This document shows, in pieces, positions 2,758-17,223 of a stretch of DNA of 64,000 bases. The position numbers and the translations under genes were made by a program. The stretch is from UHGV virus genome UHGV-0076294. One strand, written 5' to 3'. The stretch comes from a virus. Position 1 is the stretch's first letter. The number at the start of each line of letters is the position of its first letter. Under the pieces are notes generated by a model. The model saw only the letters and a list, made by a program, of their open reading frames with translations, did not search any database and was not told where the DNA came from.

Positions 2758-3285
2758 ATGGCTAAAGCCTTCAATCAACAGCTCATCGAAGCTGTAATTG
2801 CTAAAAACTCAGGAACCGCTTCTAATCTGACGGTTGGTGATGTCGATTTTGGTGCTGTTGCTGAGTTCAGCGGAGACGCTGGCCGCAACACTAAAATTAC
2901 ACTGACCGCCAAGGCAGAAAGCCAGAACTTCAAAGGCGAGAAAGAATTCCACTACACTCGTCTGGTCTCGCAAAGCCTCATTACGCTGACGGAAGTTACA
3001 GCAGAAACTACTGAAGTCGAAGATTCTGTTATCATCGCAAAACTCAACGAAGATATAGTCGCTAAAGGCTATACTGACGACGAGTTCAAAGCCGAAGAAT
3101 TGACCATTCAGAAAACTGATGCAGGTGAAGGTAATTTCAATTACACCGTTAGTGTAAACGAAGGTCATATCAAATTCTTAGCTGGACAAATCGCTGTTTA
3201 TAGCTATAAAAAGCCAGCGCCTGAAAAAGTAGCTCTGAGCGGTCTGGAAGGTGAGCTCGACGCCTTCACAGCTCCAGTAGCCTAA
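2758..3285 (+). CDS. Hypothetical protein, paralog pair member 1
   Basis: Paralogous to 3337..3870 (NTKITLTA..NFKG..HYTRL and C-terminal GELDAFTA). GAGG RBS. Confidence 0.75.
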   Translation: MAKAFNQQLIEAVIAKNSGTASNLTVGDVDFGAVAEFSGDAGRNTKITLTAKAESQNFKGEKEFHYTRLVSQSLITLTEVTAETTEVEDSVIIAKLNEDIVAKGYTDDEFKAEELTIQKTDAGEGNFNYTVSVNEGHIKFLAGQIAVYSYKKPAPEKVALSGLEGELDAFTAPVA

Positions 3286-3336: not shown

Positions 3337-3870
3337 ATGGATAGTCAAGCTACTAACCAAATGCAGCTAGTCGAGTTATATAACGCTGCCAACACTGGTT
3401 TGCCGCACAAATTGGTGTCGTCTGAAGTAAAATTTGGTCTGCCCTCTGCAAACGACGACGGTGAAAAAAATACCAAAGTTACAATGACCGCTTTACCCGG
3501 CTCAGAAAATTTCCGTGGTCAGATTGAACTTAAGTACGACCGATTAAACCCCTCCATAATTTCTGATTCTCTGGGAGTGGTCAAACTCGAGGGGGAGATA
3601 GAAAAATGGCGGGAAGATAACTATGTTCGCGCCTATCTGCAACATTATATTAACCAAGTAAAACCCAAAGACACAATAGCCACAGGCGATATTGTTTATA
3701 GTTACGAAGAAGTAAAAGAACAGGATAAACTTGTCGCACTACGAGTTACCTGCACTGTCGCTGAAAGAAACCATAAATATCTGCAAGGCGTAATGCTTGT
3801 CTTTGAAGTTAGTCCAGAAAAGATCGATCTTTCCACCACCAACGGTGAGTTGGACGGTTTTACTGCTTAA
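3337..3870 (+). CDS. Hypothetical protein, paralog pair member 2
   Basis: NTKVTMTA..NFRG..KYDRL and C-terminal GELDGFTA shared with 2758..3285. AGGAG RBS. Confidence 0.75.
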   Translation: MDSQATNQMQLVELYNAANTGLPHKLVSSEVKFGLPSANDDGEKNTKVTMTALPGSENFRGQIELKYDRLNPSIISDSLGVVKLEGEIEKWREDNYVRAYLQHYINQVKPKDTIATGDIVYSYEEVKEQDKLVALRVTCTVAERNHKYLQGVMLVFEVSPEKIDLSTTNGELDGFTA

Positions 3871-3908: not shown

Positions 3909-3943
3909 TACCTACCTCCTTTACGGAGGTAGGTACTTTTTTT
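3909..3943. terminator. Bidirectional rho-independent terminator
   Basis: TACCTACCTCC/GGAGGTAGGTA stem followed by T7. Sits between convergent genes. Confidence 0.8.
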
Positions 3944-4616
3944 ATTTTATCCCCATTTCTAAAGCGTACGCTCGGATGGTATCATAATCACGCTGCTCGG
4001 CTAAAAGTCGAAGCTCTTTTTTCTGCTCGGTTTTCTGATTATGCAATTTCTGATCGCGTTTCACAATCGTTGCCATCAGTTCCTTACACTGCTCCAATGT
4101 GAACGGTTCCACTCGAGCGTTTGATGTGTCCAACCAGTAATCCGGTGCGGTTTCTGATTGGATATACTGACTTAACATCTGTCTTGACGTTGAGTCTGTT
4201 TGGAAATAACGTCCGTTTAATTCAATAGGCGCATAACGTTGCTCCTCATAAAGACGCTCCATCTCTATCATGATTTTCTGAACATCCTGATAGATATACC
4301 GCACCGTAGAACGAACGTTATTTCGTATTTCTTCTAAATCAATCTCAAGAACATCAGAGATAAATTCTTTCGCTTTCTGTAGCGTAAAATTAGCCTCAAT
4401 CTCTGACATATCATAACTGCGCATCTGTTCGATTGCGGCCTTATCTTCCAACCCTTCGATTAATTTGTAATGTAGAAGCGCACAAAAACCTGCACGGCCA
4501 CGATCCTCATTGCCAATTCGTTCCATGTAATTACCGTGCCGATCGATTGGAAGCCCTCGTGAGAAATAACGTTGGCGTATTTCCTCTTTCGTTAAGCTTT
4601 CGTCAATAACAGACAT
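3942..4616 (-). CDS. DUF4376-like domain protein (fibre-operon accessory)
   Basis: C-half IELNGRYFQTDSTSRQMLSQYI...WLDTSNARVEPFTLEQCKEL fits my memory of the DUF4376 pattern seen next to phage fibre genes. AAAGGAG RBS. Last gene of the operon. Confidence 0.45.
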   Translation of the reverse strand: MSVIDESLTKEEIRQRYFSRGLPIDRHGNYMERIGNEDRGRAGFCALLHYKLIEGLEDKAAIEQMRSYDMSEIEANFTLQKAKEFISDVLEIDLEEIRNNVRSTVRYIYQDVQKIMIEMERLYEEQRYAPIELNGRYFQTDSTSRQMLSQYIQSETAPDYWLDTSNARVEPFTLEQCKELMATIVKRDQKLHNQKTEQKKELRLLAEQRDYDTIRAYALEMGIK

Positions 4617-5164
4617 TCATCATCTCCTTTAACTAAACCCAGTTCAATTAACAATTCAAAATCGATTTGGCGAAATTTGTTATCAAAACCAGAATCCCAA
4701 TCGATATGTAACCCTTGTCGTTCTTCATCGGTAAGTTCAGGATAAATTAAACCAAGGAACGCTTCACGTTCTTCGTAAAATCCATCGATAGTAGAATCTG
4801 GATTTCGTGTTGCATAGATCGTAATGCCCGGAAAGGATAATCCTAATGCTGTTATAGATTCGACGCTCGGTTCTTGCAAGGCCCTGCGTAAAAGCACGAT
4901 TTTATGTCGTGGAAATTCTAGTACACGTTGTTCAAATCCAGGATTCCGTTTCTCAATTTCTGTAACTGAAAGATCGGTGAGTTCTGTGCAATACATTGGG
5001 ATAACTACGGTTACTCCGTGACGAATTAATAGTCGTTTAACATCGTCAGTGAAGTCTTCACCGTTAATTTGCACATAACAACCAAACAGTTTTGTGCTCT
5101 CTAAAAACTTTTCCAAAAAACGGAATTTACGCTTCGTAATATTGTGGATCAGAATTGGTTTCAT
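4592..5164 (-). CDS. Hypothetical protein
   Basis: 190-aa ORF overlapping both neighbours (translational coupling). No recognisable motif. Confidence 0.6.
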   Translation of the reverse strand: MKPILIHNITKRKFRFLEKFLESTKLFGCYVQINGEDFTDDVKRLLIRHGVTVVIPMYCTELTDLSVTEIEKRNPGFEQRVLEFPRHKIVLLRRALQEPSVESITALGLSFPGITIYATRNPDSTIDGFYEEREAFLGLIYPELTDEERQGLHIDWDSGFDNKFRQIDFELLIELGLVKGDDECLLLTKA

Positions 5165-6449
5165 CTTTGGCTTCTCTCAATTGTTTTTCTTTCTGGGCAC
5201 GTTCACGTACGCAACGAGGGCAATAACACATGCTATTATCGTGAAAATCTTTCACTGACGTCGTGCCCATTTTCTGTTTCCAATATTCCGCAACCATCAA
5301 TTTTGCAGTTGTCCAGCCGCATTGACGGCGTTCGGCGTGATAAGCTTTGCGATCTTCTAGCGTCCCTTCTCCATTCTCGTAAGATGCAGCCGCACAACTA
5401 CCACAAGCGTGCTTCATTGGACAACCTAAACAGGTTTCAGGATAGTTGGTATATTGCGTCTGAATCTCTTCCAGCAATTTCCCGTCATCTAAGCTAACGA
5501 ATTCCCGGCCAACTAATTCAAATACGGCAGAACGTGATGTTACGGTTGACATGAAACGGTTACAACCGAAGATCTTACGATCGAATCCTAAGCAGGTCAT
5601 GTGTGTTAACGTACCGCAGAACGGACGTAAACGTTCTGGATTCAAACGTACAGTATCGTTATACAATAATTGGTCGCGCCAGTTTGGTTCCCAGATAGTA
5701 TCAAAATCTAACCCGTCTGGAATGATGTGCGACAAGGTGTTACGTGGGTTGGTGTGTAAGCCCTTCTCAACCCAATAATCAACCACATCCATCATCTGCA
5801 ATGCGATTGAAGTAGCCATGCTCCGTGGCATAATGTCTTCGAAGGTTACGTTGCCGGAAATAGTTCCACCGCCAGTAATATCAATTAATGATTTCATTCC
5901 AGCAGCATAGAACGGTAACGTTTCCAACGTAAAGGTCGCTTTTACACCAAGTTCTGCAATACCGACTTCTTTTAAGTAATTATAGCCCCGCACAGCGGCC
6001 TCGTAAGATCCTTCACGAGTTGTTGTAAAAATCCGGTACTTATCGTGCGATTCGGGCAATCCATCAATAGACACCCCAATAGAAAGCCTGTCTTTCCAAC
6101 GTTCAATAATTTCTCTATTCAAAGGTCTATCTAACAATGTTCCGTTAGTAGAAATGCTAAACATAAACGGCCGATTATGTTTTTCGCATAACTCTTCTGC
6201 GGTTTCAAATGCCGCCATTAATAACTTAGGCTGCATAAACGGCTCGCCGCCGATAATGTCGATAACGACCTCGATGTTTGTCAGGTCTTTATCCCTTTCG
6301 AAACAGGCATGTAAAAAATCAACGATATCTGCCGCTTTGTTATTCCGAGGATACTTACGTTCGTAACAATACTCACAGTCTAGGTTACACGATAAATTTG
6401 TAACGATCTGATAAGTCAGTTGTTTAGGATAACTATTTTCTTGACTCAT
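5127..6449 (-). CDS. Radical SAM enzyme with SPASM-like C-terminal auxiliary-cluster domain
   Basis: CNLDCEYC (CX3CX2C) at about residue 21, GGEPFM, C-terminal CLGCPMKHACGSC (CX2CX5CX2C) plus further Cys. 440 aa, similar in size to AnSME/SCIFF maturases. GAGGGG RBS. Confidence 0.85.
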   Translation of the reverse strand: MSQENSYPKQLTYQIVTNLSCNLDCEYCYERKYPRNNKAADIVDFLHACFERDKDLTNIEVVIDIIGGEPFMQPKLLMAAFETAEELCEKHNRPFMFSISTNGTLLDRPLNREIIERWKDRLSIGVSIDGLPESHDKYRIFTTTREGSYEAAVRGYNYLKEVGIAELGVKATFTLETLPFYAAGMKSLIDITGGGTISGNVTFEDIMPRSMATSIALQMMDVVDYWVEKGLHTNPRNTLSHIIPDGLDFDTIWEPNWRDQLLYNDTVRLNPERLRPFCGTLTHMTCLGFDRKIFGCNRFMSTVTSRSAVFELVGREFVSLDDGKLLEEIQTQYTNYPETCLGCPMKHACGSCAAASYENGEGTLEDRKAYHAERRQCGWTTAKLMVAEYWKQKMGTTSVKDFHDNSMCYCPRCVRERAQKEKQLREAKDETNSDPQYYEA

Positions 6450-7356
6450 TTTCCGCCCCTCTATTACGTTCTGCCATCACTACACGACGAATGTACTCGT
6501 AAGCTTCTACACCTATTGAGGAGGCTAGTTGGTTACACCCTGCTTTCGTAGCTATTGGTACATTTTTAAGTTGGTTTTCTTCCCCGTCCGCGTCTATCCT
6601 GAGACTTTCGCTACAGGCGTTACAAGCATGATCGAAGAATCTGTTTACAATAAAGCCGCAGTCTCTAGAATTTAGAACATTCAGTCTTTCTATATTCTCC
6701 TGAATTCTAAAATACCCGTAAATAAAGTTCATAACGTGATCGGGAGATAACGGTTTTGGCATGTTTTTGTCTAGTAATAAGGACATAGAACGAAAACCGT
6801 AATGGTAGATAGCAGTATATAATTGAATGATATCTTCATGCCATCTTTTATTGGATAAATTCTCCCTCGTAACAACAGCCCAAGTGTTAACATTATTCAA
6901 GCTGTAAATTACTTCTAACGCCTCATGGCAATTATCATCAATAAAGCGCTTAAAAGGCCGTTCAGAAAGATTAAACCCATCGATGCTAACATATATAGCA
7001 TCGAATTGTTTTAACAACGGTAGATGCGATTTACGCATTTTTAAACCGTTCGTGAACATTTGGTGTTTGAGTTCAGGACGGATCGTTTTTAATTCGTCAA
7101 CAAACGCCTCAATCTTTCGAGTTGCCAGTAGCGGTTCACCGCCAGTCCACTGAATTTCAGTAATGGTTGGGTTAGACGACAACGCTTTCAAAATTCGTTC
7201 ACGTTGAAACTCTCGCGGAGAATCTTCACGATGCATGTAATAGGCTCCGCCGCAGAAGCTACAGTCCAGATTACATTTGGATGTAGCAACTACGGACAAT
7301 ACGGTGGGTTTATTGTATAAACGATTCGATAACCTTGGCTCTACGTCGGTTGTCAT
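6433..7356 (-). CDS. Radical SAM enzyme (small paralog 2)
   Basis: SKCNLDCSFCGGAYY, GGEPLL, C-terminal CNACS...GC cysteines. Start set to ATG 7356 by length alignment with paralog 9406..10320 (ORF track gives 7371). Confidence 0.85.
   Translation of the reverse strand: MTTDVEPRLSNRLYNKPTVLSVVATSKCNLDCSFCGGAYYMHREDSPREFQRERILKALSSNPTITEIQWTGGEPLLATRKIEAFVDELKTIRPELKHQMFTNGLKMRKSHLPLLKQFDAIYVSIDGFNLSERPFKRFIDDNCHEALEVIYSLNNVNTWAVVTRENLSNKRWHEDIIQLYTAIYHYGFRSMSLLLDKNMPKPLSPDHVMNFIYGYFRIQENIERLNVLNSRDCGFIVNRFFDHACNACSESLRIDADGEENQLKNVPIATKAGCNQLASSIGVEAYEYIRRVVMAERNRGAENESRK
6679..6773. repeat. 95-nt block 100% identical to 9643..9737
   Basis: Checked base by base. Lies inside the rSAM paralogs at constant offset 2964. 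Confidence 0.95.
7010..7047. repeat. 38-nt block identical to 9974..10011
   Basis: tttaacaacggtagatgcgatttacgcatttttaaacc in both copies, offset 2964. Confidence 0.95.
7231..7281. repeat. 51-nt block identical to 10195..10245
   Basis: atgcatgtaataggctccgccgcagaagctacagtccagattacatttgga in both copies (encodes the CX3CX2C region), offset 2964. Confidence 0.95.
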
Positions 7357-7377
7357 TGCAGGTGACTCCATCTATTT

Positions 7378-8265
7378 TTAAATATAGCCAATGGATAACA
7401 AAGGATCGTCGTAAGCGTTAACTCCGGGTTTTAATACAAATGGTGAATTGTAAGCCTCGATAATGCGATTAAGGTCCTTATAACGCACGTTTAAACGTTC
7501 TAAATCCGCCAACGTTACGTTACGTTCCAATACCGCCGACACTGCTGCTTTTTCTTCATCAGTTAACGTGACTTTCGTCATTAAGAAACTAACAAGTTTT
7601 GCTAAATCTGCTTCCGATGACGGGTGTTCACCAATACGTGTTTGAATTAAATGTTGCATCCACGGCTTACGAATACGTTTTGTGATTTCATGTTCATCTG
7701 TAAGGGCAACCCACACAGAGCGTTCGCGATCCCACACAAATTTATAACTGTACGCCATCAGATCGGCTAAGCAGTTGATGCCAAGCTCCTCGTAACCTTC
7801 TATTTCAATGTACGGTTCGGTATCAACATAGTTTTTTGTTTCTACAGGAACCAGTGCATAAAAGTACGGGAATGAACCGAGATAGTCTGGAGACCACCAA
7901 CGACGTGCTACAGGCTTCGCATTCAACTCTTTAAATGGCGTAAAGAACAATTCCAAATCTACAGAATTATTCAGAATACCGTCACTAAAGAAATATTTAC
8001 CGTCAACCAATTTACCGCGTAAATCTGAATCACCGGTAAACACCACTACGCTTTCTGCTGACAGATCGCGTATTTTAAAAGTGTTTTCTACTGAATAGTT
8101 ATTGCGATCGGTAAAAAAACGACCGCGCACTTTGGGCCATTCGCCAGGTAACTGAGTTAACAAACGAACTTTATCTTCCAAATGAGCGCGTATTGAATCG
8201 GGGGAAGAAATATGAAGTGGGTGGTTGAAAATTGTTTTATAGGCTAAATGCAAATCGTTTTTCAT
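7378..8265 (-). CDS. Hypothetical protein
   Basis: 295-aa ORF between the Cys-rich genes and rSAM 2. TGGAG RBS. No recognisable motif. Confidence 0.7.
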   Translation of the reverse strand: MKNDLHLAYKTIFNHPLHISSPDSIRAHLEDKVRLLTQLPGEWPKVRGRFFTDRNNYSVENTFKIRDLSAESVVVFTGDSDLRGKLVDGKYFFSDGILNNSVDLELFFTPFKELNAKPVARRWWSPDYLGSFPYFYALVPVETKNYVDTEPYIEIEGYEELGINCLADLMAYSYKFVWDRERSVWVALTDEHEITKRIRKPWMQHLIQTRIGEHPSSEADLAKLVSFLMTKVTLTDEEKAAVSAVLERNVTLADLERLNVRYKDLNRIIEAYNSPFVLKPGVNAYDDPLLSIGYI

Positions 8266-8277
8266 TGATTACTCCAA

Positions 8278-8568
8278 TTATTTTACGGTCAATCTGACGT
8301 TCAAGGTATAGAACCCGCCACGCCATTGCCTGCCGGTAACTTCAAATTCCGCAGTAAAGCCGTTTGATTTACTCGGTTGCTGCGTAATCGCCATGGTTCC
8401 GCCGGAATTACTTAATACTTCTAACGAGATAGAAACAGAAGATGCATTACCGATAGAGTCTATCTTAAAACTAGCCGCGTCTGTAAAATTGACACTGATA
8501 CCGTTACCCATCGCAACTTGTGGATAGGCGTAAGACTTGCCAGACAGTAACGATTTAAAGATCCTCAT
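8278..8568 (-). CDS. Beta-rich domain ORF, probably the -1 frame continuation of 8739..8945
   Basis: No SD before ATG 8568. Its frame is open upstream to 8757, across the G10 run. Confidence 0.6.
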   Translation of the reverse strand: MRIFKSLLSGKSYAYPQVAMGNGISVNFTDAASFKIDSIGNASSVSISLEVLSNSGGTMAITQQPSKSNGFTAEFEVTGRQWRGGFYTLNVRLTVK

Positions 8569-8945
8569 CGGTTTTTCTTTACCGGTTAATGTTGCGCATT
8601 GAATAAAGACGGTCCCAGTAGAGAAATTGATACGGACAACATCTTTAGCGTGTAGCTTAGACTCAACATAAACAACGGCTTTGTTATCGTAGGCGGGTCT
8701 TGATGGGGTTGGTGTGGAACCGCCGCCGGAGGGCTTACTTACCCCCCCCCCGCTCCCTTACTACAGCTACCGCTGCACGACCAACTACAACCACCGTTAC
8801 AATTATAATGACTTAAAGGTAACCCAGCTAGATTGTTGGTTGAAGAAACCGTCCCTTGGTTTGCAATATAGTTGTTTGCATTAGCGGTGGTGATATATCC
8901 CTCCGCTGTTACTAACCTGTCGCGTATGTTTTTAAGACTTATCAT
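8278..8945 (-). CDS. Candidate fusion product (fibre-like N-terminus, mini CX3C segment, G/P/T linker, beta-rich domain) via -1 frameshift
   Basis: Hand translation: frames differ by exactly -1 and overlap only across GCG GGG GGG GGG TAA. No stop in the linking segment. Confidence 0.5.
8739..8945 (-). CDS. Cys-rich fibre-like protein 3 (short form, 4 Cys)
   Basis: MISLKNIRDRL... N-terminus and NCNGGCSWSCSGSCS junction homologous to the two longer Cys-rich proteins. Confidence 0.7.
   Translation of the reverse strand: MISLKNIRDRLVTAEGYITTANANNYIANQGTVSSTNNLAGLPLSHYNCNGGCSWSCSGSCSKGAGGG
8742..8751 (-). repeat. G10 homopolymer (C10 on + strand), a slippery or phase-variable tract
   Basis: Ten consecutive C at 8742..8751, directly abutting the TAA of the 68-aa ORF. 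Confidence 0.95.
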
Positions 8946-8948
8946 TTC

Positions 8949-9347
8949 TTATCTTCCAGTACACGATTGCTGACATCCGCCTCGACATGAACCCGAACAT
9001 GTTCCGGTGCAACTACTTGAACAACCACCCGAGCAGTTACCTGTGCACCCTCCTGAGCAGGTACTGCTACAACCTGTACAACCTGTACTACATCCTGAAA
9101 CACAGTTCGCTGAACAGGAAGAACCGCAGCCACCGGAGGCGTTGCCGGTGCAGCCGCCCGAACAACTTGAGCATGTCCAGCTACAGCTACCTCCGCAGTC
9201 ATAGTGAGTTCTCGGCTGTCCTCCAAACAGATCGCTATTATTAGTGGCTTTACCACGAATATAGTTCTGCACCGCACCAGTGTTTTTTAATGCAGTAGAG
9301 TCTATGTTATCCAGCCGGGCCTTTAAAGAAGATAAACCAATCGCCAT
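8949..9347 (-). CDS. CX3C-repeat Cys/Gly/Ser/Thr-rich protein 2
   Basis: 132 aa with 20 Cys in the last ~82 residues, mostly CX3C. Conserved N-region and DCGGSCSWTCS junction. Confidence 0.85.
   Translation of the reverse strand: MAIGLSSLKARLDNIDSTALKNTGAVQNYIRGKATNNSDLFGGQPRTHYDCGGSCSWTCSSCSGGCTGNASGGCGSSCSANCVSGCSTGCTGCSSTCSGGCTGNCSGGCSSSCTGTCSGSCRGGCQQSCTGR
9167..9200. repeat. 34-nt block identical to 10555..10588
   Basis: ttgagcatgtccagctacagctacctccgcagtc encodes DCGGSCSWTCS on the minus strand in both Cys-rich genes. Confidence 0.95.
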
Positions 9348-9405
9348 TTTAATACCTACTGGTTTAGTGCCCCCTAGGACACATTATAATTCATTTTCTG
9401 TAAAA

Positions 9406-10320
9406 TTATCGTAGTTTTTCTGAGACTCTATTCTTAGCCCCTACCACACGACGTATATAGTCGTAAGCATCTAATCCAACCTTTCTGGCCAAGTCACTAC
9501 AACCATGCTGCGTTACGATTTCAACGTTCTTTACTTGGTTCTGGGCACCGTCAGACTCAATGCGAAAACAACGACTACACGTATTACAGGGTTCATCAAA
9601 TAACGCATTTAGCGTAAACGCACATTCACTTCGATTGGACGAATTCAGTCTTTCTATATTCTCCTGAATTCTAAAATACCCGTAAATAAAGTTCATAACG
9701 TGATCGGGAGATAACGGTTTTGGCATGTTTTTGTCTAAAACCAGCGACATCTCACAAAAACCATAATGGTAAATGTGGTTATGTAACGCAATTATATCTT
9801 CGTACCAACGTTTATCCCCAATACGCTCGCGTGTCAAGACCGCCCAAGTACGAATATTTTTCAATTCGTAAATTGTCTCCAAAACCTCGTATTGTTTTTC
9901 TTCGATAATCCTCATGAACGGACGCTCTGATTCTTTGAATCCATCCATGCTAAAAAAGATACTATCAAAACCCTTTAACAACGGTAGATGCGATTTACGC
10001 ATTTTTAAACCATTGGTATACAGGTAATGTTCGCAACGAGGATACTTCTCCCTTATCTCTTCTATAAGGGTATCAATTTTACGCGAGGCAAGTAATGGTT
10101 CGCCCCCTGACCATTGGATATTTGTGATAGTCGGGTTATTTTCCAGCGCCTCGATAATACTTTCCTTTTGTACTTCTGTGGTTGTATCCTCTCTATGCAT
10201 GTAATAGGCTCCGCCGCAGAAGCTACAGTCCAGATTACATTTGGACGTTGTAATCACGTTTAACGTTCTCGGATTACTGTAGAGCTTATCGGATACCGTC
10301 GGTCTAGTAAGTTCTTCCAT
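9406..10320 (-). CDS. Radical SAM enzyme (small paralog 1)
   Basis: SKCNLDCSFCGGAYY, GGEPLL, C-terminal CNTCSRC...GC. Paralog of 6433..7356. Confidence 0.85.
   Translation of the reverse strand: MEELTRPTVSDKLYSNPRTLNVITTSKCNLDCSFCGGAYYMHREDTTTEVQKESIIEALENNPTITNIQWSGGEPLLASRKIDTLIEEIREKYPRCEHYLYTNGLKMRKSHLPLLKGFDSIFFSMDGFKESERPFMRIIEEKQYEVLETIYELKNIRTWAVLTRERIGDKRWYEDIIALHNHIYHYGFCEMSLVLDKNMPKPLSPDHVMNFIYGYFRIQENIERLNSSNRSECAFTLNALFDEPCNTCSRCFRIESDGAQNQVKNVEIVTQHGCSDLARKVGLDAYDYIRRVVGAKNRVSEKLR
9643..9737. repeat. 95-nt block identical to 6679..6773
   Basis: See 6679..6773. Confidence 0.95.
9974..10011. repeat. 38-nt block identical to 7010..7047
   Basis: See 7010..7047. Confidence 0.95.
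10195..10245. repeat. 51-nt block identical to 7231..7281
   Basis: See 7231..7281. Confidence 0.95.
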
Positions 10321-10339
10321 TCGAACTGATCCTTATTTT

Positions 10340-10732
10340 TTATGGGTTAGAACAACCACCTGCACAAGAACCACTACACCCCGAGGAACAACGTCCAGCA
10401 CATCCCCCAGTACAAGTCCCACTACATCCTGAACAACCACCCGAACATGTTCCGGTGCAACCACTGCATTGATTACCACACGCAGAGGAACAGCTTCCTA
10501 CGCACACCGATGTACATGTACCTGAACAACTCGTACAACCATGCGTACAACCGTTTGAGCATGTCCAGCTACAGCTACCTCCGCAGTCTAATCGACCGGG
10601 TGTCCAACCTGAAAATGAATCAGCAGCATTATGTGCTTTCGACGCAACTTGCGGATCAACACGTGGCCCAGTTGCTATTCGGTTCTCTACGTTGGTGATT
10701 CGGTCACGTACGTTTTTAACACTGATCGCCAT
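10340..10732 (-). CDS. CX3C-repeat Cys/Gly/Ser/Thr-rich protein 1
   Basis: 21 Cys in the last ~82 residues. MAISVKNVRDRI N-terminus. Start set to ATG 10732 (AAGGA 6 nt upstream) rather than GTG 10735. Confidence 0.85.
   Translation of the reverse strand: MAISVKNVRDRITNVENRIATGPRVDPQVASKAHNAADSFSGWTPGRLDCGGSCSWTCSNGCTHGCTSCSGTCTSVCVGSCSSACGNQCSGCTGTCSGGCSGCSGTCTGGCAGRCSSGCSGSCAGGCSNP
10555..10588. repeat. 34-nt block identical to 9167..9200
   Basis: See 9167..9200. Confidence 0.95.
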
Positions 10733-10743
10733 CACATATCCTT

Positions 10744-10789
10744 AAAATAAAAAAGAATGGAGGACTACGTCCATAAACATAGTTCCTCC
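10744..10789 (-). terminator. Candidate terminator/attenuator between fibre gene 4 and the Cys-rich/rSAM cluster
   Basis: Minus strand: 9-bp stem with one bulge (GGAGGAACTA.../...TAGTCCTCC) followed by TTCTTTTTTATTTT. Confidence 0.5.
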
Positions 10790-10799
10790 TGTAATTAAA

Positions 10800-11999
10800 T
10801 TATTTCGTACCCGCTTCTGCTTGTACGTCATCACGAGACGTCAGGTTAGCGTTAACGTGCACTGGGGCCTGAACCACGCCACCGTATCTCTTGTGGAGAT
10901 AACCTGTATGTGGGTTATCTGCCGCAATGTGGTTTTGTAGGTTTTGGTTCGCCTGACTGATTGCGTTCGTGTTATTATTAACCTGCTGTTTAAGCGCATC
11001 CAGGTTTTGTTGTAACTGATCGATTTTCTGATCGGTTTCTTGGCCATGTTGCTCTAACGCTTCAACACGCTGAATAACCTGATTCAGTTTTGTATTTAAA
11101 TCGTTGACACTCTTTTGCAGTTGTAACACTAACGAGTTCAGGTTCGCTAACGCTAAAGCCATTTTCTGGTAGTTTTGAGCAACCACGTTAAGTTGGTCGT
11201 TCCACGCTTCCAGAGAGCTGACAACAGCGTCAATACGCTTACCTAAAGCTTCATCTGCTTTCTTCAGTGCATTGATTTCCGTAATCGTTGCGTCGATAGC
11301 AGACTGGACGTCACGAATAAGCGCACGGATTTCAGTTTCTGTTAGTCCATTAACCTGATGGATATCAAGTTGGTGGACGTTACCGGTTGCATTGATGTGC
11401 GCATTTAAAGCGTCCAAGAAGTCGTTTTTCAGACTTTCCAGAATCGCTTTAATGTTCTCTAACTGTACCGCATCGCCAGAACTGATCGCGTCCTTAATGC
11501 CCGCCAATACAGCGATGATATATTCAAAGCCATAAATGTCACCTACGTCTTTATACGTCGGCGCTGACGGGAATGTATCTGGTACGTTACGTAAGTCTTT
11601 AAATGCAACTGTACGGTTATCGAGGTTTAGCTCAGCAATCGCTTGTTCGATAGCCACGATGTTTGCAGACTGTGGGCCACCAACTACCTGCGCAGATACC
11701 GTAATGTCTGTCGGAATCGCTGTGTTAGTGACCACAACCGCCATGACAATCTCGCGGTTTTTAGTCAGCTTTTCATAAGCCGGGTGTGCAAAAATCAACT
11801 CATAATCGGTACCACGTTCGTAGGTTGCATCCGGTCGGTTAGCAACGCGCAAACGAAACGTGTCCGCAAAGAACGGGCCGTCAGGAAAAGCAAAAGCACG
11901 GTTTACTTTACCTGTACCTAACGTAACCTGACGCTCCACAGCGTTAGACGTTAGCGAGCCTGTTAAATCTAAAGGATATTGGTAAACAATGGAGGCCAT
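10800..11999 (-). CDS. Tail fibre protein (short, coiled-coil shaft)
   Basis: N-terminal FPDGPFF...GTDYEL module shared with the three giant fibre genes. Long heptad-like Q/N/L-rich segment. Start set to ATG 11999 (AAGGAGAG RBS). Confidence 0.8.
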   Translation of the reverse strand: MASIVYQYPLDLTGSLTSNAVERQVTLGTGKVNRAFAFPDGPFFADTFRLRVANRPDATYERGTDYELIFAHPAYEKLTKNREIVMAVVVTNTAIPTDITVSAQVVGGPQSANIVAIEQAIAELNLDNRTVAFKDLRNVPDTFPSAPTYKDVGDIYGFEYIIAVLAGIKDAISSGDAVQLENIKAILESLKNDFLDALNAHINATGNVHQLDIHQVNGLTETEIRALIRDVQSAIDATITEINALKKADEALGKRIDAVVSSLEAWNDQLNVVAQNYQKMALALANLNSLVLQLQKSVNDLNTKLNQVIQRVEALEQHGQETDQKIDQLQQNLDALKQQVNNNTNAISQANQNLQNHIAADNPHTGYLHKRYGGVVQAPVHVNANLTSRDDVQAEAGTK

Positions 12000-12039
12000 G
12001 GCCACTCTCCTTTATTCGAGACGTCCTTGTCCCGAGTCA

Positions 12040-15000
12040 TTAAGATGTAAACATAAGATTGAACTGGAGTTTGTCGATATCTCGAGTTTCAGCCGGATTC
12101 AACGCATCGAACGTAGTTGCCACATAAACCGTTAGCGTACCATCATCATACGAAGATTTCACCGGCGGATTAGTTCCAGTCTGACCATCTCTCACAACGA
12201 GTGCAGGCTCGCTGGGAAGATTATCAAACTGCCCTTTAACCGCTTTGTATACCAAACCGGACTGTGCAGATAACTCCGTGTCTGTGTACACACAGAACGG
12301 TGTATCGATGTCAGCTTGTTTGATAGTGGTACCGGATTCGACATCAATCAACTGTACTGCTCCAAACTTCGTGCGATAACTTTCATATTCGTTCTTCGGA
12401 ATAACAAAAGTAACGTGAACACGAACTTCTTCAGCGGGCTTAAAGCCAGTATGTTCTTTTTCCAAATACTGATTGGCTGATAGCGTCACTTTTTGTTCGG
12501 CCATCGAACCACCTGCCTGATTTATTCCGTACCGGGCTTCAACAATACCGGTTGGTGCAGCAAGTCGCAATTTCAGAGTTCGATTCGCCGTTCCTGGATT
12601 ACCTGGCACTTGAACGCGCAAACTCAATGCTAAGTAAGCATACGTTCCGGTAGTCGGTTTCGTATACGCACCTATCCATTTCATGTTCGCAGACGCTGCC
12701 TGCGAGTTCTCAGAAGCAGTAGCTGTCGCAATGTTAGCAGCTACCGCTTTCTGCCAGAATTGGTCGGCGCAGTTCTCATACGCTACTCTGGCCACGCTCT
12801 TATAACCCGAATACGTTTCCTGGATTGGTATCTTAGGACGCGTCGTGATGCCAGACAATGAACCCCATTTCTGGCCGTCAACATACCCTTCGCCCTTCGA
12901 CGCAGACGCCGTAGGTGCTTTAACGGGCTTGTTAATCAGTGTTAATAGAGGACCCGTCTTTCTGTCGAACGCTGCCGCTACATCGTGTTGGTCGATAATT
13001 GCTGCGTGGTCTTCCAGCTCTTTCACACGACCCAAGCGTTTTACTTTGTCGATACTGATATCAGTAATACGGCTGGAATCGGTGGTTACTGTCCCAACGA
13101 ACAGTCTTGTTGAAGTATCGGCTAACTGCTCCAAACCGATGCGGTATTGCGCGGTAGAACCCGACACCTCAGCGTGCACGTAGAACGTCTGGTTAGCGTG
13201 ATTGGACGGGAACTCGCTGCTTAAATCCACAGACCACGTTGGGAGTGTATAGCTGCTACTACCGAAATCTAACTTGACTTCTTCAGTCAGATACAGAATC
13301 CAACCTTCCGCTGTTTCCACACCGGCGATGATAACAGCCTGACCTCCGGTTGAGAAGGTCGTGTCGTTAACAAACTCTGCGGCTGTATACGCGTTACCTG
13401 AGCAGAAAACGCGGTCAGCTTTAGAGAAAATCAACGCCATCTTGTCCCAGTTACCCGCACCCATATAGCACCCAGATTCTGGGTTATGTGCAGGAGCCAT
13501 CTGTCGTAACTGCGACTTACCAGGAACGCGAGACCAACCTGAACCTGGGTCGTAGGTATACTTCGCGGCGTAACCTAGTGCGTTTAAGTCCCCGATATTT
13601 CGGATAGTTAACGTATAAGGTAGCCAGATACCGAAGTTAGTTCCATCCGCAGAAGCGAAAATAGGCTGTCCGACGCGACGGGTCTTATTACCAGCCTCCT
13701 CTCTTAACGACTGATAACTTAAACCGTAATCTTTATCCAGGAACCAATCCACCAACTTAAAGGTAGCTGAGTTGAACCGTAAGTAGCCATTCTCTTTAGA
13801 TGGACTCACCATGAAGTAATAGATATCAAGAATTCGACGTCCGTTACTTAAGGTTTTCATGCACGAAACTTGCAACAAGTCAAACTCGCACACGGTATTG
13901 ATACCCAACATCCAAAGAGCAAACAAGGCATTACCGGTTTGATGTGCAGCACTAATACGCTCGTTTGCGTATCCGTTCGCTTCACCAGAAGGCGCACCGT
14001 CAACGATCATCTGAATCATTTTCTGACGATCGGTTTCTTCTAACGTTAAGCGTTCAGAAGACAACGCAAAGTTACCGTAGATGTTACGATACGGGAACGT
14101 TTCTGCTTTGGTCAAATACCAACCATTTAATTGACCGTGACGTTCTTCAGGGATCATGCACGCCGCCATACAGCTAAGCTGTTCGTAAAGCGTTGCATCG
14201 ACTTCACGACGGTTGTTATTCGGTCCGTAGCCACTGTAACCCGGAACGTCGTAAGGTTTATTCGGATCAACTTCCACTTCGATGGTATAACGGTTACGTG
14301 GGTTTGACAACCACACCTTATTCGAACCACCAATTCCGACAGGATGAGAAAGACCGATGGTATAAATAGAACCACGACCTTTATCCCAGGTAAACGTTCC
14401 TTCGCCTGAGGTATTGTTTGGGTTATCGTAACGCAGATAATCGAAAAGCTCTTTGCCTTGCGTTCCTTTAATAGAAACGTTAGGCATCTGGTCTGCATCG
14501 TTAATCTGCCAACAGGAAAGCATCATTCCCGTACCGTTGGGTTTAGCATACGTCGCGAAACAACGATTGTTTGCTTGACCACCGCCCCACTTACGGCTGG
14601 TTTCTACAGTTGAACCATCCGCGAAAGAGAGTGTAGTAGCATCAGCCTTGATGGGGAAGCGTTCGCGGCCTTCTAACGTAACCTTGCCCGTCGACGTATC
14701 GATTGTAAAACTTGTTGCCCATTGACGAAAGTTAATTTGTGAGCTGTCAGCCGCTGCAAACCACACAGTAGGCATATGGTTCACACGAATCACGCCGTCG
14801 CGCACTGCACAAGCATGGTTACATTCTGGACCGTGAACAAAGTTGCAACCAATTGTCCATTTAGCCCGTGCTTCCGGCGTCAAATACGTAAAGAACTGAC
14901 CCGTTTGTGACTCTTCGGTTTTCTGGCCAATGCGTAGGCAGAGGTTATCTCCAAATTGTCCCATCTCCCCGTTTAGTGTTACGCGTTCAAACTCCAGCGT

Positions 15001-17223
15001 GGTGCTAGTAGACAAATCGTCCTTACGTAGACGCCAAGCTGCTACTGCGTAAGCAGAGTTATTTACCGTAGAGCGGAGAAGATAAACGTAATCCTCAACC
15101 AACACAACATCATCGGCTTCTGGCCACGGATTCCAGGTTTGTTCCACAGTACCGCTGGGGTTGCCGTTACGGTACACGGGCATCGTAACGCGACATACCA
15201 CCGTGTGTTTAGTGTGATCCATCGAACCATTAAACAACACCAAATAACGGTTATTATCAGAACCCAGACAAATAATCGCTTCCTGACCACCGATCAATAT
15301 AGCTTTCAGGGTCACTTCAGGATATTTACTCATCCCGGCAGGGTGATATTTCACTGAGGTCTGCTGCGGATTTACAAACGCGTTTGACGTGTTAATGTCA
15401 GCATAGCCGTAATAAATGGCTTCTGTACCCGGTACGCCGTTAGAACCGTTACGGAGCGAATAAACCTTACCCTGCTGATACCCAACAACCCCTTTTTGAT
15501 AAGACTGGTTTTTGGTATAACCCGAATAGTTACCTAGCGCTGGGATAGGTAAGAAGTTCTTGTTACCGAACTTCGCACCACCTACCGTCCACGCCGGTAA
15601 GATGGTATTCAGTTTATCAGAGACTTTCTTAATCTCTTTTGCGAACAGCCACCCTTGACGCGACGTGACAGCTTTATCGTTAGTAGTGTCAATCGCATCC
15701 CAGAGCTGCAAGATGCCGTCAACCGTTGCACTACCAATTGGAATGTTAACCAAGTCAGCAGTGGTGTGTGTATGCGTCTTCAAACTCTTGTTTTTCAACA
15801 CGTTCGTTAACGCTTTCGTCACCGGCTTAGCACTTGGCGTGGTGTTATCCATCTTATCGATACCGAAATCGGTTTTCGTTAAGGTTAACACCATACTGTC
15901 GCCTACCTTAACAAACCCTTTACCGTTAACGGTATAGTCATCGTCAACGTACAGGTCCAAGCGGTCTTTTAATTCGGTTACGGCTTTCTGGGAGATAGCA
16001 GTACCTAACGCCGCAGACGTGGAGATATTCGTAATCGAGAACAACCCATAAACTGATTCGGTCGCTGTGGGAATATTCGCGTTTAACGTAACCGGGTTAG
16101 TCTGTTTTGCGGTACCGTACGGTTTTACAGTGTCTGACGCTTTGAAATACGCGTTTGCTTCGAGCAACGTTACTGACGTCAGGTACATGTTCACCATTTC
16201 TGGCGTAACCAGATACACGGAGTTATAAACTGGCGCTAATACATCCTGTTCTGACCCCGAGTGAACCCAAAGCGTATTCAGACCCGCACTGAATTCAACC
16301 GCTAAACCCGATTCGTTGTTGTCCTGGTCTGCTTTAATCACCAACGGTTGTGGCGAGGTAATTAACCACTTATCACCACGAATACTGATGATGTGGCCAC
16401 CTGACGTTTTAAACGTTAATTCATTACTGTTCGTGGTACCCCATCGACCGTAAACGGTGCCGAGGGCTTCACCCATTAACTGGTCAACGTCCGATTGCTC
16501 AATACCCGCTGAACCCATCAGCGTAGCCAACTCGTCAATCGTCAACCCAAACGCTTTTGTAGCGTCAACAGCACGTCCTAATACGGGAAGAGCAGCAATG
16601 TCATCAGTGGTATAATGATGCGCGTTAGGGTTACGGTGATGCTGGTATAATTCTTCGTCGAAAACCTTTTTCCCGTTCTCGTAAATCAGGTTAGTGACTT
16701 CACTGAACGCAGCATCTAACTCCGTAGAACGCTTAATGATTTTCTTGCGAATGTCTTCTAACGCCTTAACAACCTCATCCCTCAGAATCGCTTCTTCTAA
16801 GTTAGCAGGCGGGTCGATAGGCTGAATAACCGGCGCATACGCCATTAGTTCAGACCAGTCCACGTTACGTGGGTCTTTCAGGTCAGTACGAACTAAGAAC
16901 TTCCCGATTTCAGATTGCGGTACACGATATTGACGTGCTACCCCTAAAATCTCATATTCGATTTCTGTTGCAGTAAGCAACATAAACCCGCCGTAAATCT
17001 GATCTTGTTCAGCTTCTGCGAGTTCTTTAAAGTAATAGCCTAAATAGTAGTCCAACCCCTCAATCAGAGTACGACGTCCGTTAGGCGCGGTATCGTCGGC
17101 TACTGTGAGTTTTAATCCGATACGATAAAAAGGTCCTTCAGGTGGAATGACCACGTTAAATCGGTTAGGGTACGTTGCTGTGCTTAGCGTACCGTTAAAC
17201 TGCGCCGCGTCTTCTCTCGGCAT
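12040..17223 (-). CDS. Giant tail fibre / host-recognition protein (1727 aa)
   Basis: PPEGPFY...GLDYYL N-module. Fibre-type motifs (FGIDKMDNTTPSAKPVTKAL, KTHTHTTADL, NPNAHHYTTDDIAAL). AGGAG RBS. Confidence 0.8.
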   Translation of the reverse strand: MPREDAAQFNGTLSTATYPNRFNVVIPPEGPFYRIGLKLTVADDTAPNGRRTLIEGLDYYLGYYFKELAEAEQDQIYGGFMLLTATEIEYEILGVARQYRVPQSEIGKFLVRTDLKDPRNVDWSELMAYAPVIQPIDPPANLEEAILRDEVVKALEDIRKKIIKRSTELDAAFSEVTNLIYENGKKVFDEELYQHHRNPNAHHYTTDDIAALPVLGRAVDATKAFGLTIDELATLMGSAGIEQSDVDQLMGEALGTVYGRWGTTNSNELTFKTSGGHIISIRGDKWLITSPQPLVIKADQDNNESGLAVEFSAGLNTLWVHSGSEQDVLAPVYNSVYLVTPEMVNMYLTSVTLLEANAYFKASDTVKPYGTAKQTNPVTLNANIPTATESVYGLFSITNISTSAALGTAISQKAVTELKDRLDLYVDDDYTVNGKGFVKVGDSMVLTLTKTDFGIDKMDNTTPSAKPVTKALTNVLKNKSLKTHTHTTADLVNIPIGSATVDGILQLWDAIDTTNDKAVTSRQGWLFAKEIKKVSDKLNTILPAWTVGGAKFGNKNFLPIPALGNYSGYTKNQSYQKGVVGYQQGKVYSLRNGSNGVPGTEAIYYGYADINTSNAFVNPQQTSVKYHPAGMSKYPEVTLKAILIGGQEAIICLGSDNNRYLVLFNGSMDHTKHTVVCRVTMPVYRNGNPSGTVEQTWNPWPEADDVVLVEDYVYLLRSTVNNSAYAVAAWRLRKDDLSTSTTLEFERVTLNGEMGQFGDNLCLRIGQKTEESQTGQFFTYLTPEARAKWTIGCNFVHGPECNHACAVRDGVIRVNHMPTVWFAAADSSQINFRQWATSFTIDTSTGKVTLEGRERFPIKADATTLSFADGSTVETSRKWGGGQANNRCFATYAKPNGTGMMLSCWQINDADQMPNVSIKGTQGKELFDYLRYDNPNNTSGEGTFTWDKGRGSIYTIGLSHPVGIGGSNKVWLSNPRNRYTIEVEVDPNKPYDVPGYSGYGPNNNRREVDATLYEQLSCMAACMIPEERHGQLNGWYLTKAETFPYRNIYGNFALSSERLTLEETDRQKMIQMIVDGAPSGEANGYANERISAAHQTGNALFALWMLGINTVCEFDLLQVSCMKTLSNGRRILDIYYFMVSPSKENGYLRFNSATFKLVDWFLDKDYGLSYQSLREEAGNKTRRVGQPIFASADGTNFGIWLPYTLTIRNIGDLNALGYAAKYTYDPGSGWSRVPGKSQLRQMAPAHNPESGCYMGAGNWDKMALIFSKADRVFCSGNAYTAAEFVNDTTFSTGGQAVIIAGVETAEGWILYLTEEVKLDFGSSSYTLPTWSVDLSSEFPSNHANQTFYVHAEVSGSTAQYRIGLEQLADTSTRLFVGTVTTDSSRITDISIDKVKRLGRVKELEDHAAIIDQHDVAAAFDRKTGPLLTLINKPVKAPTASASKGEGYVDGQKWGSLSGITTRPKIPIQETYSGYKSVARVAYENCADQFWQKAVAANIATATASENSQAASANMKWIGAYTKPTTGTYAYLALSLRVQVPGNPGTANRTLKLRLAAPTGIVEARYGINQAGGSMAEQKVTLSANQYLEKEHTGFKPAEEVRVHVTFVIPKNEYESYRTKFGAVQLIDVESGTTIKQADIDTPFCVYTDTELSAQSGLVYKAVKGQFDNLPSEPALVVRDGQTGTNPPVKSSYDDGTLTVYVATTFDALNPAETRDIDKLQFNLMFTS

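Follow-up and report, generated by a model that had tools for sequence, protein, structure and literature searches.

We analysed a 64,000-nucleotide stretch of virus genome UHGV-0076294, hereafter called the window, in which the minus strand encodes three cysteine-rich proteins, i.e. Cys1 (130 amino acids, 10340-10732), Cys2 (132 amino acids, 8949-9347) and the short paralogue Cys3 (68 amino acids, 8739-8945), together with radical S-adenosylmethionine (SAM) enzymes. A first-pass annotation made from the sequence alone had described the three open reading frames (ORFs), their N-termini and a common N-terminal region, and the translations agree with this description, the shared N-region comprising about 49 residues. 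In Cys1, the N-region spans residues 1-49 and is followed by the junction C50-S59, encoded at 10556-10585, and a core with 21 Cys; the junction of Cys2 is encoded at 9168-9197 and its core has 20 Cys. Cys3 consists of the N-region and the junction (8772-8801), has only 4 Cys and ends with ...KGAGGG-TAA. We read these as three-part proteins, in which an N-region of ~49 residues, with an amphipathic stretch over the first ~16 residues and then a conserved (N/D)-x-x-x-(L/F)-x-G-x5-(Y)-x segment, leads through an invariant C-x-G-x-C-S-(W) junction into a Gly/Ser/Thr-rich core. Within the cores the Cys residues are spaced by four, with few spacings of three and a single one of eight, resulting in a very high Cys content of 15-16% accompanied by small side chains. 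Across 208 units in CX3 register, X1 is Ser in 120, Thr in 36 and Gly in 29, X2 is Gly in 117 and Ser in 38, and X3, mostly Gly, Ser, Thr or Asn, is Gly in 73, Ser in 62 and Thr in 43. Neither long core contains Asp or Glu, and the junction Trp is, as had been noticed before, the sole Phe/Trp/Tyr residue in either of them, the Cys1 core having one His in addition.

The three Cys genes are genuine and represent more than chance ORFs. All of them match the phrog_6085 profile (E-values of 5.7e-40 for Cys1, 3.4e-39 for Cys2 and 8.4e-25 for Cys3), and comparison with three orthologues reveals that changes at third codon positions exceed those at first and second positions 2-4 fold in the Cys frame, identifying this frame as the coding frame rather than the Val/Ala-rich alternative frames. 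Cys3 is the best-conserved paralogue relative to phage SPN3US, with 8 amino acid differences in 69 codons. Many GenBank records lack the Cys genes or show another frame, and most tblastn matches fall on unannotated DNA. The SPN3US annotation omits Cys1 and Cys3 and has, at the place of Cys2, a Val/Ala-rich ORF in an alternative frame, while SEGD1 carries two such Val/Ala-rich ORFs where the Cys genes lie. The mis-framed or empty spans are 10491-11127 in SEGD1 (L001) and 4692-5721 in SPN3US (L003), and Cys1 of SEGD1 appears to be frameshifted, leaving an ORF for a 47-amino-acid N-terminal fragment at 11173-11316. Since the genes are absent or mis-framed in many records, including that of the genetic model phage SPN3US, existing proteomic data have probably never been searched for the Cys proteins; the predicted tryptic peptides of SPN3US Cys1 include VQIVEANMATGPR, IDAQVASK and FGGWTK.

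Downstream of Cys3, the minus strand encodes the 295-amino-acid accessory protein p295 (7378-8265), which is an obligatory member of the cassette, a small radical SAM enzyme of 312 amino acids (6433-7371; Pfam PF04055), a large radical SAM/SPASM enzyme of 440 amino acids (5127-6449) and the 190-amino-acid protein p190 (4592-5164), conserved in the cassette, whose gene overlaps the end of the gene of the large enzyme. Clear family assignments were obtained for the Cys proteins (phrog_6085), p295 (phrog_8030) and p190 (phrog_7988), all three families having no functional annotation. Of the loci compared, the window and its two closest relatives, L013 and L014, alone have an extra small radical SAM enzyme of 304 amino acids, in the window also encoded on the minus strand (9406-10320; PF04055 and PF13353; cluster motif CNLDCSFC). 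This paralogue shares 63% identity with the 312-amino-acid enzyme (BLASTP E-value of 4e-149), both having the CX3CX2C cluster motif and only weak and mixed NCBIfam matches pointing to no informative family. Several Cys residues are conserved in the C-terminal region of the 312-amino-acid enzyme and are, judged by sequence, a possible auxiliary cluster site. The 440-amino-acid enzyme, the probable main maturase, aligns with the SPASM-type models TIGR04115 and PapB over the full length of the models and contains a C-terminal CX2CX5CX2C motif. Its best NCBIfam match is TIGR04115, the maturase of the CXXX-repeat system (118 bits), followed by PapB (114 bits). The same ranking is found for the large enzymes of three lineages, i.e. 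the window, L040 and L032, with TIGR04115 being best each time (118, 135 and 174 bits) with nearly the whole model spanned and PapB being second-best (114-155 bits). On the substrate side, Cys2 (22.3 bits) and Cys1 (20.2 bits) reach the cut-off of 20 bits of TIGR04114, the 'CXXX repeat radical-SAM target' model, as do the relatives Cys-A of L040 (23.2 bits), P0030 (20.2 bits) and Cys1 of L037 (20.0 bits); Cys3 gave no TIGR04114 match in the NCBIfam scan.

The three Cys proteins, p295, the small radical SAM enzyme, the large SPASM radical SAM enzyme and p190 form a seven-gene cassette, of which one or more Cys proteins, the small radical SAM enzyme, a p295-like protein and the large radical SAM enzyme travel together in at least three unrelated backgrounds, namely SPN3US-like jumbo phages, the metagenomic contig L032 and the 76-kb phage contig L040. 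An orthologue of the 312-amino-acid enzyme occurs in every cassette examined. L032 encodes a Cys protein, a 278-amino-acid radical SAM enzyme, a 234-amino-acid protein with 27% identity to p295 (E-value of 5e-6) and a 377-amino-acid radical SAM enzyme with 36% identity to the 440-amino-acid enzyme (E-value of 3e-65). In L040, three Cys proteins (two long and one short) are accompanied by a p295-like protein (E-value of 1e-27), a small radical SAM enzyme (E-value of 4e-30), a large radical SAM enzyme 52% identical to the 440-amino-acid enzyme and a p190-like protein (E-value of 3e-11). This repeated co-inheritance is the main argument for the Cys proteins being substrates of the co-encoded enzymes. 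The Cys-protein N-region and the CxGxCSW junction were found in phage sequences only, a scan of 185,579 genomes for bacterial relatives yielding just one spurious high-GC match (L030). The cassette is strongly mosaic when compared with L013, L014, L023, L015 and L043: between the window and L013, the fibre protein, p401, the 304-amino-acid and the 440-amino-acid enzymes are 95-98% identical and p295, the 312-amino-acid enzyme and p224 are 69%, 75% and 73% identical, respectively, and the p295 of L043 is 99% identical to that of the window, yet its Cys3 extension differs. These identities point to frequent recombination between cassette genes.

The junction, which had been called almost invariant, is so at part of its positions: 24 family members from several genera, when aligned, share only C50, G52, C54 and S55 without exception, with conservation of at least 90% at W56 and G42. 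No other element of the family is as conserved as the junction. Deviations are found in Cys2 of the SPN3US group, in which Phe stands in place of the Trp, in Cys3 of the Wellington and Derbicus type, which keeps CxGxCSW and has no Cys following it, and in a remote lineage, in which the junction is one residue shorter and reads CGGCSW or CNGCSW. Synonymous sites vary freely between genomes and, in most genomes, between paralogues, so that selection acts on the amino acids of the junction. The identity of 34 nucleotides between Cys2 (9167-9200) and Cys1 (10555-10588) reported before is exact and ends at both sides without extension. We considered this block as a functional or conserved nucleotide element and rejected it, as the synonymous sites of the junction show this free variation. 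Only in the window, L013 and L014 are the junction codons of Cys1 and Cys2 identical or nearly identical within a genome and different between genomes, and this combination of paralogue-identical and genome-specific codons indicates a local, lineage-specific gene conversion. It is this lineage that also has the gene for the 304-amino-acid radical SAM enzyme, situated between Cys1 and Cys2.

In the window and in every SPN3US-like locus examined, the Cys genes lie directly downstream of genes for two virion-protein homologues, a fibre/baseplate-type protein of 1727 amino acids (12040-17223, minus strand) and a coiled-coil protein of 401 amino acids (10800-12005, minus strand), for which matches to phrog_2163 and phrog_7449 were obtained. 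All jumbo-phage loci show the fibre gene, the gene for the 400-amino-acid virion protein, the Cys genes and then the enzymes, and the gene order of the window was found in every SPN3US-like genome inspected, the DNA of the window being ~70% identical to that of SPN3US-like jumbo phages of Salmonella, Escherichia, Proteus and Erwinia. In SPN3US, the 401- and 1727-amino-acid neighbours have as counterparts a gene for a 412-amino-acid 'virion structural protein' and a 5.2-kb gene. As matched by size, these are gp167 (44.8 kDa) and gp168 (188 kDa), both of which mass spectrometry revealed in purified SPN3US virions (PMC5694885). The minus-strand genes of the window described here, from the fibre/baseplate-type gene to the last one at 3942-4616, belong to one long co-oriented block, and a terminator scan detected a terminator-like hairpin at 3909-3935, just past the last gene of the block, and none fitting an operon boundary ahead of it.

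The N-region had been likened to segments common in phage fibre shafts. This resemblance does not hold at the level of the motif, which as a regular expression matched once in the large ORFs of the window against 0.76 matches expected, i.e. without enrichment. Nor did a profile search with the N-region alone detect a fibre protein: against the six-frame translation of the window it returned only the three Cys ORFs (E-values of 5e-23 to 3e-22), the next best match having an E-value of 0.7. What stands of the proposed fibre link, besides the position of the Cys genes next to virion-protein genes, is that distant homologues bear the module behind genuine tail-fibre-type N-terminal domains, the N-region matching no fibre family itself. 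An exhaustive HMMER search with N-region and junction over 1.84 billion representatives returned 30 proteins, mostly jumbo-phage orthologues. Among them, P0021, P0028 and P0030 (211-258 amino acids) have an N-terminal domain of 90-130 residues followed by the module, here N-D-A-x-x-L-G-G-x-x-P-x-H-Y-x-C-x-G-G-C-S-W-T-C, and a CXXX core. In P0021, residues 8-67 match phrog_5073 'tail fiber protein' (E-value of 3.6e-5) and residues 98-208 match phrog_6085 (E-value of 2e-19), and its N-terminal part gave tblastn matches to a 'tail protein' of a crAss-like phage and to 'collagen-like proteins' of Roseobacter phages. The P0028 gene has a gene for a collagen-repeat protein upstream and a radical SAM gene downstream. 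An association with fibres is therefore plausible and independently supported; scans of IMG/VR and JGI metagenomes for fibre-fused variants found nothing. As a separate observation, the metagenomic contig L031, which encodes P0030, contains, downstream of the fibre-fused gene and within 5889-6438, three direct and at least one inverted partial copies of the 3' cassette, each beginning at a conserved sequence of ~22 nucleotides, CGTGCAGTACCACCTGCACGGG; the inverted pair is 95% complementary and the contig ends inside the repeat. In this, the region is reminiscent of alternative C-termini organised as an invertible or shufflon-like set.

A further link to exchangeable domains is seen at the 3' end of Cys3, which reads ...AAG GGA GCG GGG GGG GGG TAA and in which a G10 homopolymer of the minus strand (8742-8751; C10 on the plus strand) abuts the stop codon and differs in length among relatives. 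Shifted by -1 with respect to Cys3, an open frame of 159 codons runs from the G10 tract down to 8278 (8278-8741, minus strand), and an ORF of 96 amino acids at 8278-8568 on the same strand, which a program had listed as a gene of its own, is the distal part of this extension frame. Its Met is preceded by 63 codons lacking ATG, GTG and TTG, which are conserved as protein with 58-90% identity to P0075-P0077, right up to the G run. In the window (G10) the extension would be reached by a -1 shift; in L036 (G11) it is in frame, resulting in the 210-amino-acid fusion P0003 (...KGAGGGVNNQQ...); in L034 (G9), L035 (GCA followed by G11) and L043 (G9) a +1 shift is needed, the extension of L043 being a wholly different one of ~160 amino acids; and in L015, L023 and L045 the tract is interrupted and the extension is deleted or contains stops. 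In P0013, a different C-terminal domain again is joined in frame to Cys3. An AlphaFold2 model of the extension is all-beta, but with a predicted local distance difference test score of 47 its confidence is low and too weak for a fold search. RNA folding downstream of the G tract is no better than in shuffles (z of 0.38). We considered a programmed -1 ribosomal frameshift at the tract and rejected it, as the direction of the shift differs (-1, +1 or none) and the downstream folding is unremarkable. A hypermutable homopolymer or transcriptional slippage agrees better with these findings. From the sequences compared, the tract looks like a gate for an exchangeable C-terminal domain of Cys3, allowing for an assembly error in any single record.

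Such a combination of a poly-G tract and an exchangeable domain is typical of host-recognition proteins. Hypermutable poly-G tracts occur in receptor-binding protein genes of Campylobacter phages, with which the situation described here shares a G9-G11 run placed where a conserved N-terminal part meets an exchangeable C-terminal domain and tract lengths and frames differing between relatives; it differs in belonging to an enterobacterial jumbo phage and in having a Cys-repeat protein as the upstream part. Cys3 would probably be a short adaptor that in this lineage can be extended by an exchangeable beta-rich domain through a change in tract length or slippage. The poly-G-linked domain suggests that enterobacterial jumbo phages have a phase-variable element acting in host range or adsorption.

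We see about an even chance for a model according to which Cys1-3 are substrates of the co-encoded radical SAM enzymes and phage members of a CXXX-repeat-type system that probably act as accessories of the fibre apparatus. In this model, the large SPASM enzyme, aided by the small radical SAM enzyme or enzymes, p295 and p190, would install multiple intramolecular cross-links, which by analogy with the nearest enzyme families would most likely be thioethers between the Cys sulfur and a carbon of a neighbouring residue, and the outcome would be a stiff, protease-resistant thread. The N-region would probably not be a disposable leader but would stay attached, serving enzyme recognition as well as assembly, and the Cys proteins would probably end up as accessory parts of the tail-fibre apparatus. 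We would describe the system as a phage-borne variant within the CXXX-repeat radical SAM kind, with its own accessory proteins and a recurring link to fibres. With the bacterial CXXX-repeat system (TIGR04114/04115/04116), which is itself defined bioinformatically only, it shares tandem Cys-Xaa-Xaa-Xaa repeats in a small protein encoded beside a SPASM-type radical SAM enzyme. It differs by a second, small radical SAM enzyme (present in two copies in the window), by the phage-specific p295 and p190, by the conserved ~49-residue N-region and CxGxCSW junction of the targets and by the phage setting, which is mostly a tail-fibre operon.

Ranthipeptide and sactipeptide maturation (PapB-freyrasin, SCIFF/CteB) likewise involves a SPASM enzyme and several Cys donors four residues apart, PapB-type enzymes using the acceptor pattern C-X3-D/E and the known substrate having 6 donors. 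In contrast, the phage cores have no Asp/Glu and ~20 donors per protein, no leader protease or exporter was detected, and some phage members are embedded in larger fibre-type proteins. A conceptual precedent for radical SAM cross-linking of a protein that is kept in a larger assembly is given by QhpD, which puts intra-protein Cys thioether cross-links into QhpC, a small structural subunit bearing a Cys-Trp-derived cofactor. The QhpD model TIGR03906 matches the large phage enzymes weakly (58-91 bits), whereas the phage Cys proteins have no sequence relationship to QhpC.

Several observations weigh against the model of enzyme-modified fibre accessories. The large enzyme scores far under the cut-offs of TIGR04115 (350 bits) and PapB (340 bits), no TIGR04116 partner is detectable, and p295, the 96-amino-acid ORF, p190 and p224 have no NCBIfam match at an E-value of 0.01 or lower. 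The lack of Asp/Glu in the cores deprives them of the PapB-type ranthipeptide acceptors, so that thioether acceptors, if formed, would differ from those of PapB substrates, and the literature searched holds no published chemistry for the bacterial CXXX-repeat family. Neither Pfam, NCBIfam, PHROGs and the PDB nor the phage's own fibres contain a fibre family or solved structure matching the N-region. The SPN3US virion analysis by mass spectrometry lists no product of the Cys interval (PMC5694885). In L040/L041, the cassette adjoins an Acb2/Tad1-hairpin gene, a GIY-YIG endonuclease and a chaperonin rather than fibres. The Acb2/Tad1-hairpin domain gene (6848-7069; anti-CBASS/anti-Thoeris sponge fold) lies beside the cassette, and the surroundings comprise two nucleotidyltransferase-like genes, another radical SAM gene, the GIY-YIG endonuclease gene and a Cpn60 chaperonin gene.

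The lack of a listed virion product and the L040/L041 setting would also fit a classical ribosomally synthesized and post-translationally modified peptide (RiPP), in which the N-regions are leaders that are removed and the cross-linked cores are released as small bioactive products instead of becoming virion parts. A leader-like length, a repeat core and a SPASM maturase are the standard layout of such systems, RiPP maturases are the closest models for the enzymes, RiPP clusters commonly have three precursor paralogues, and the L040/L041 cassette is placed among accessory or anti-defence-type genes. We nevertheless regard this alternative, whose product could be a toxin, a metal chelator, an anti-defence or a signalling peptide, as rather improbable. 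None of the cassette versions was found to contain a gene for a protease, a transporter or an immunity protein, searches of Pfam, NCBIfam and PHROGs revealing no peptidase or transporter domain in the genes of the unit 3942-12005 or in the L032 and L040 cassettes. The lack of a protease or exporter domain, and Cys3 orthologues keeping the N-region with only two Cys and being strongly conserved, argue against a classical leader, as does the module carrying C-terminal domains (P0003, P0013) or extra fibre-type N-termini (P0021, P0028, P0030), by which it comes to lie mid-protein in some members. The genes are also co-oriented with the late structural genes with no boundary-type hairpin before 3909-3935, and the absence of the proteins from the mass spectrometry data is uninformative because Cys1 and Cys3 are unannotated and Cys2 is mis-framed in SPN3US, so that they were probably not in the searched database. 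The Cys content of 15-16% with small side chains also resembles metal-thiolate proteins, the small radical SAM enzymes show no informative family match and the core lacks the acceptor residue typical of known thioether RiPPs, all of which would agree with metal-binding or disulfide-rich proteins (metallothionein-like or Fe-S/Zn scaffolds), whose cysteines would stay free or form disulfides or metal clusters, the radical SAM enzymes acting on something else, such as the fibre proteins or a small molecule. This is unlikely given the strict co-occurrence of the Cys proteins with both radical SAM enzymes in three unrelated backgrounds, the matches to the radical SAM target model at its curated threshold and a strict CX3 register with Ser/Thr at X1 and Gly at X2, which looks enzyme-recognised.

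A last alternative concerns the polypeptides themselves. Cys2 and Cys3, or all three Cys proteins, might be joined into one chain by stop-codon readthrough or recoding, since the stop of Cys2 and the start of Cys3 stand in one frame, separated as TAA GAA ATG exactly as the first-pass annotation had stated. The in-frame arrangement recurs in SPN3US/SEGD1/STsAS, pEa_SNUABM_6, Wellington, Derbicus and Phobos. The suggested linkage is contradicted, however, when more than 10 genomes are compared, the two genes being out of frame in Asesino, ChrisDB, Caitlin, pEa_SNUABM_4 and pEa_SNUABM_11. The spacer is not constant in the in-frame genomes measured (3, 15 and 21 nucleotides), the Cys2 stop codon is TAA in the window but TGA in the close relative L013, no tRNA gene is encoded in the window, and Cys2 and Cys3 each retain their own Met and their own conserved N-terminus. 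The broken frame relation, the varying spacers and stops and the missing tRNA gene suggest that the in-frame arrangement is a coincidence, making a joined polypeptide very improbable.

Returning to the model of Cys1-3 as radical SAM substrates of the fibre apparatus, its most specific version combines virion Cys1-3 bearing a thioether ladder installed by the phage enzymes, an assembly of the three paralogues through their N-regions, possibly as a heterotrimer, on the fibre apparatus and a swappable Cys3 domain switched by the poly-G tract; taken as a whole, we consider it tentative and rather unlikely. If true, this would to our knowledge be the first radical SAM-cross-linked structural protein of a virus. 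Radical SAM peptide maturases have become known as producers of small, secreted natural products. In the phages, an entire set of such enzymes is conserved within a late/structural operon, and the substrates look like fibre pieces, not like disposable precursors. If cross-linking and virion location are true, RiPP enzymology would be linked to virion architecture and host recognition, and the phage system would offer a tractable model for the uncharacterised CXXX-repeat family. The literature searched contained nothing relevant on phage radical SAM/Cys-rich proteins, TIGR04115 or the phage genes, and what seems to be new is the interpretation together with the poly-G-gated extension, the sequences themselves being already catalogued as PHROGs.

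The minus-strand unit ends with a gene for a DUF4376 protein of 224 amino acids (3942-4616; Pfam PF14301), which shows weak matches to the PHROG tail-fibre and tail families 1141 and 2837. A scan for sigma-70 promoters gave fewer matches than in shuffles. Just past the terminator-like hairpin, the plus strand carries two DUF7941 paralogues of 175 and 177 amino acids side by side at 2758-3285 and 3337-3870, and upstream of this pair a further group of plus-strand genes is located at 152-2017. A close relative of the phage region is contained in a 114-kb contig of a Salmonella enterica serovar Enteritidis assembly (GCA_008107045.1; L035), a record which suggests that Salmonella is the host, or that the sequenced culture harboured the phage in a carrier state or by pseudolysogeny.

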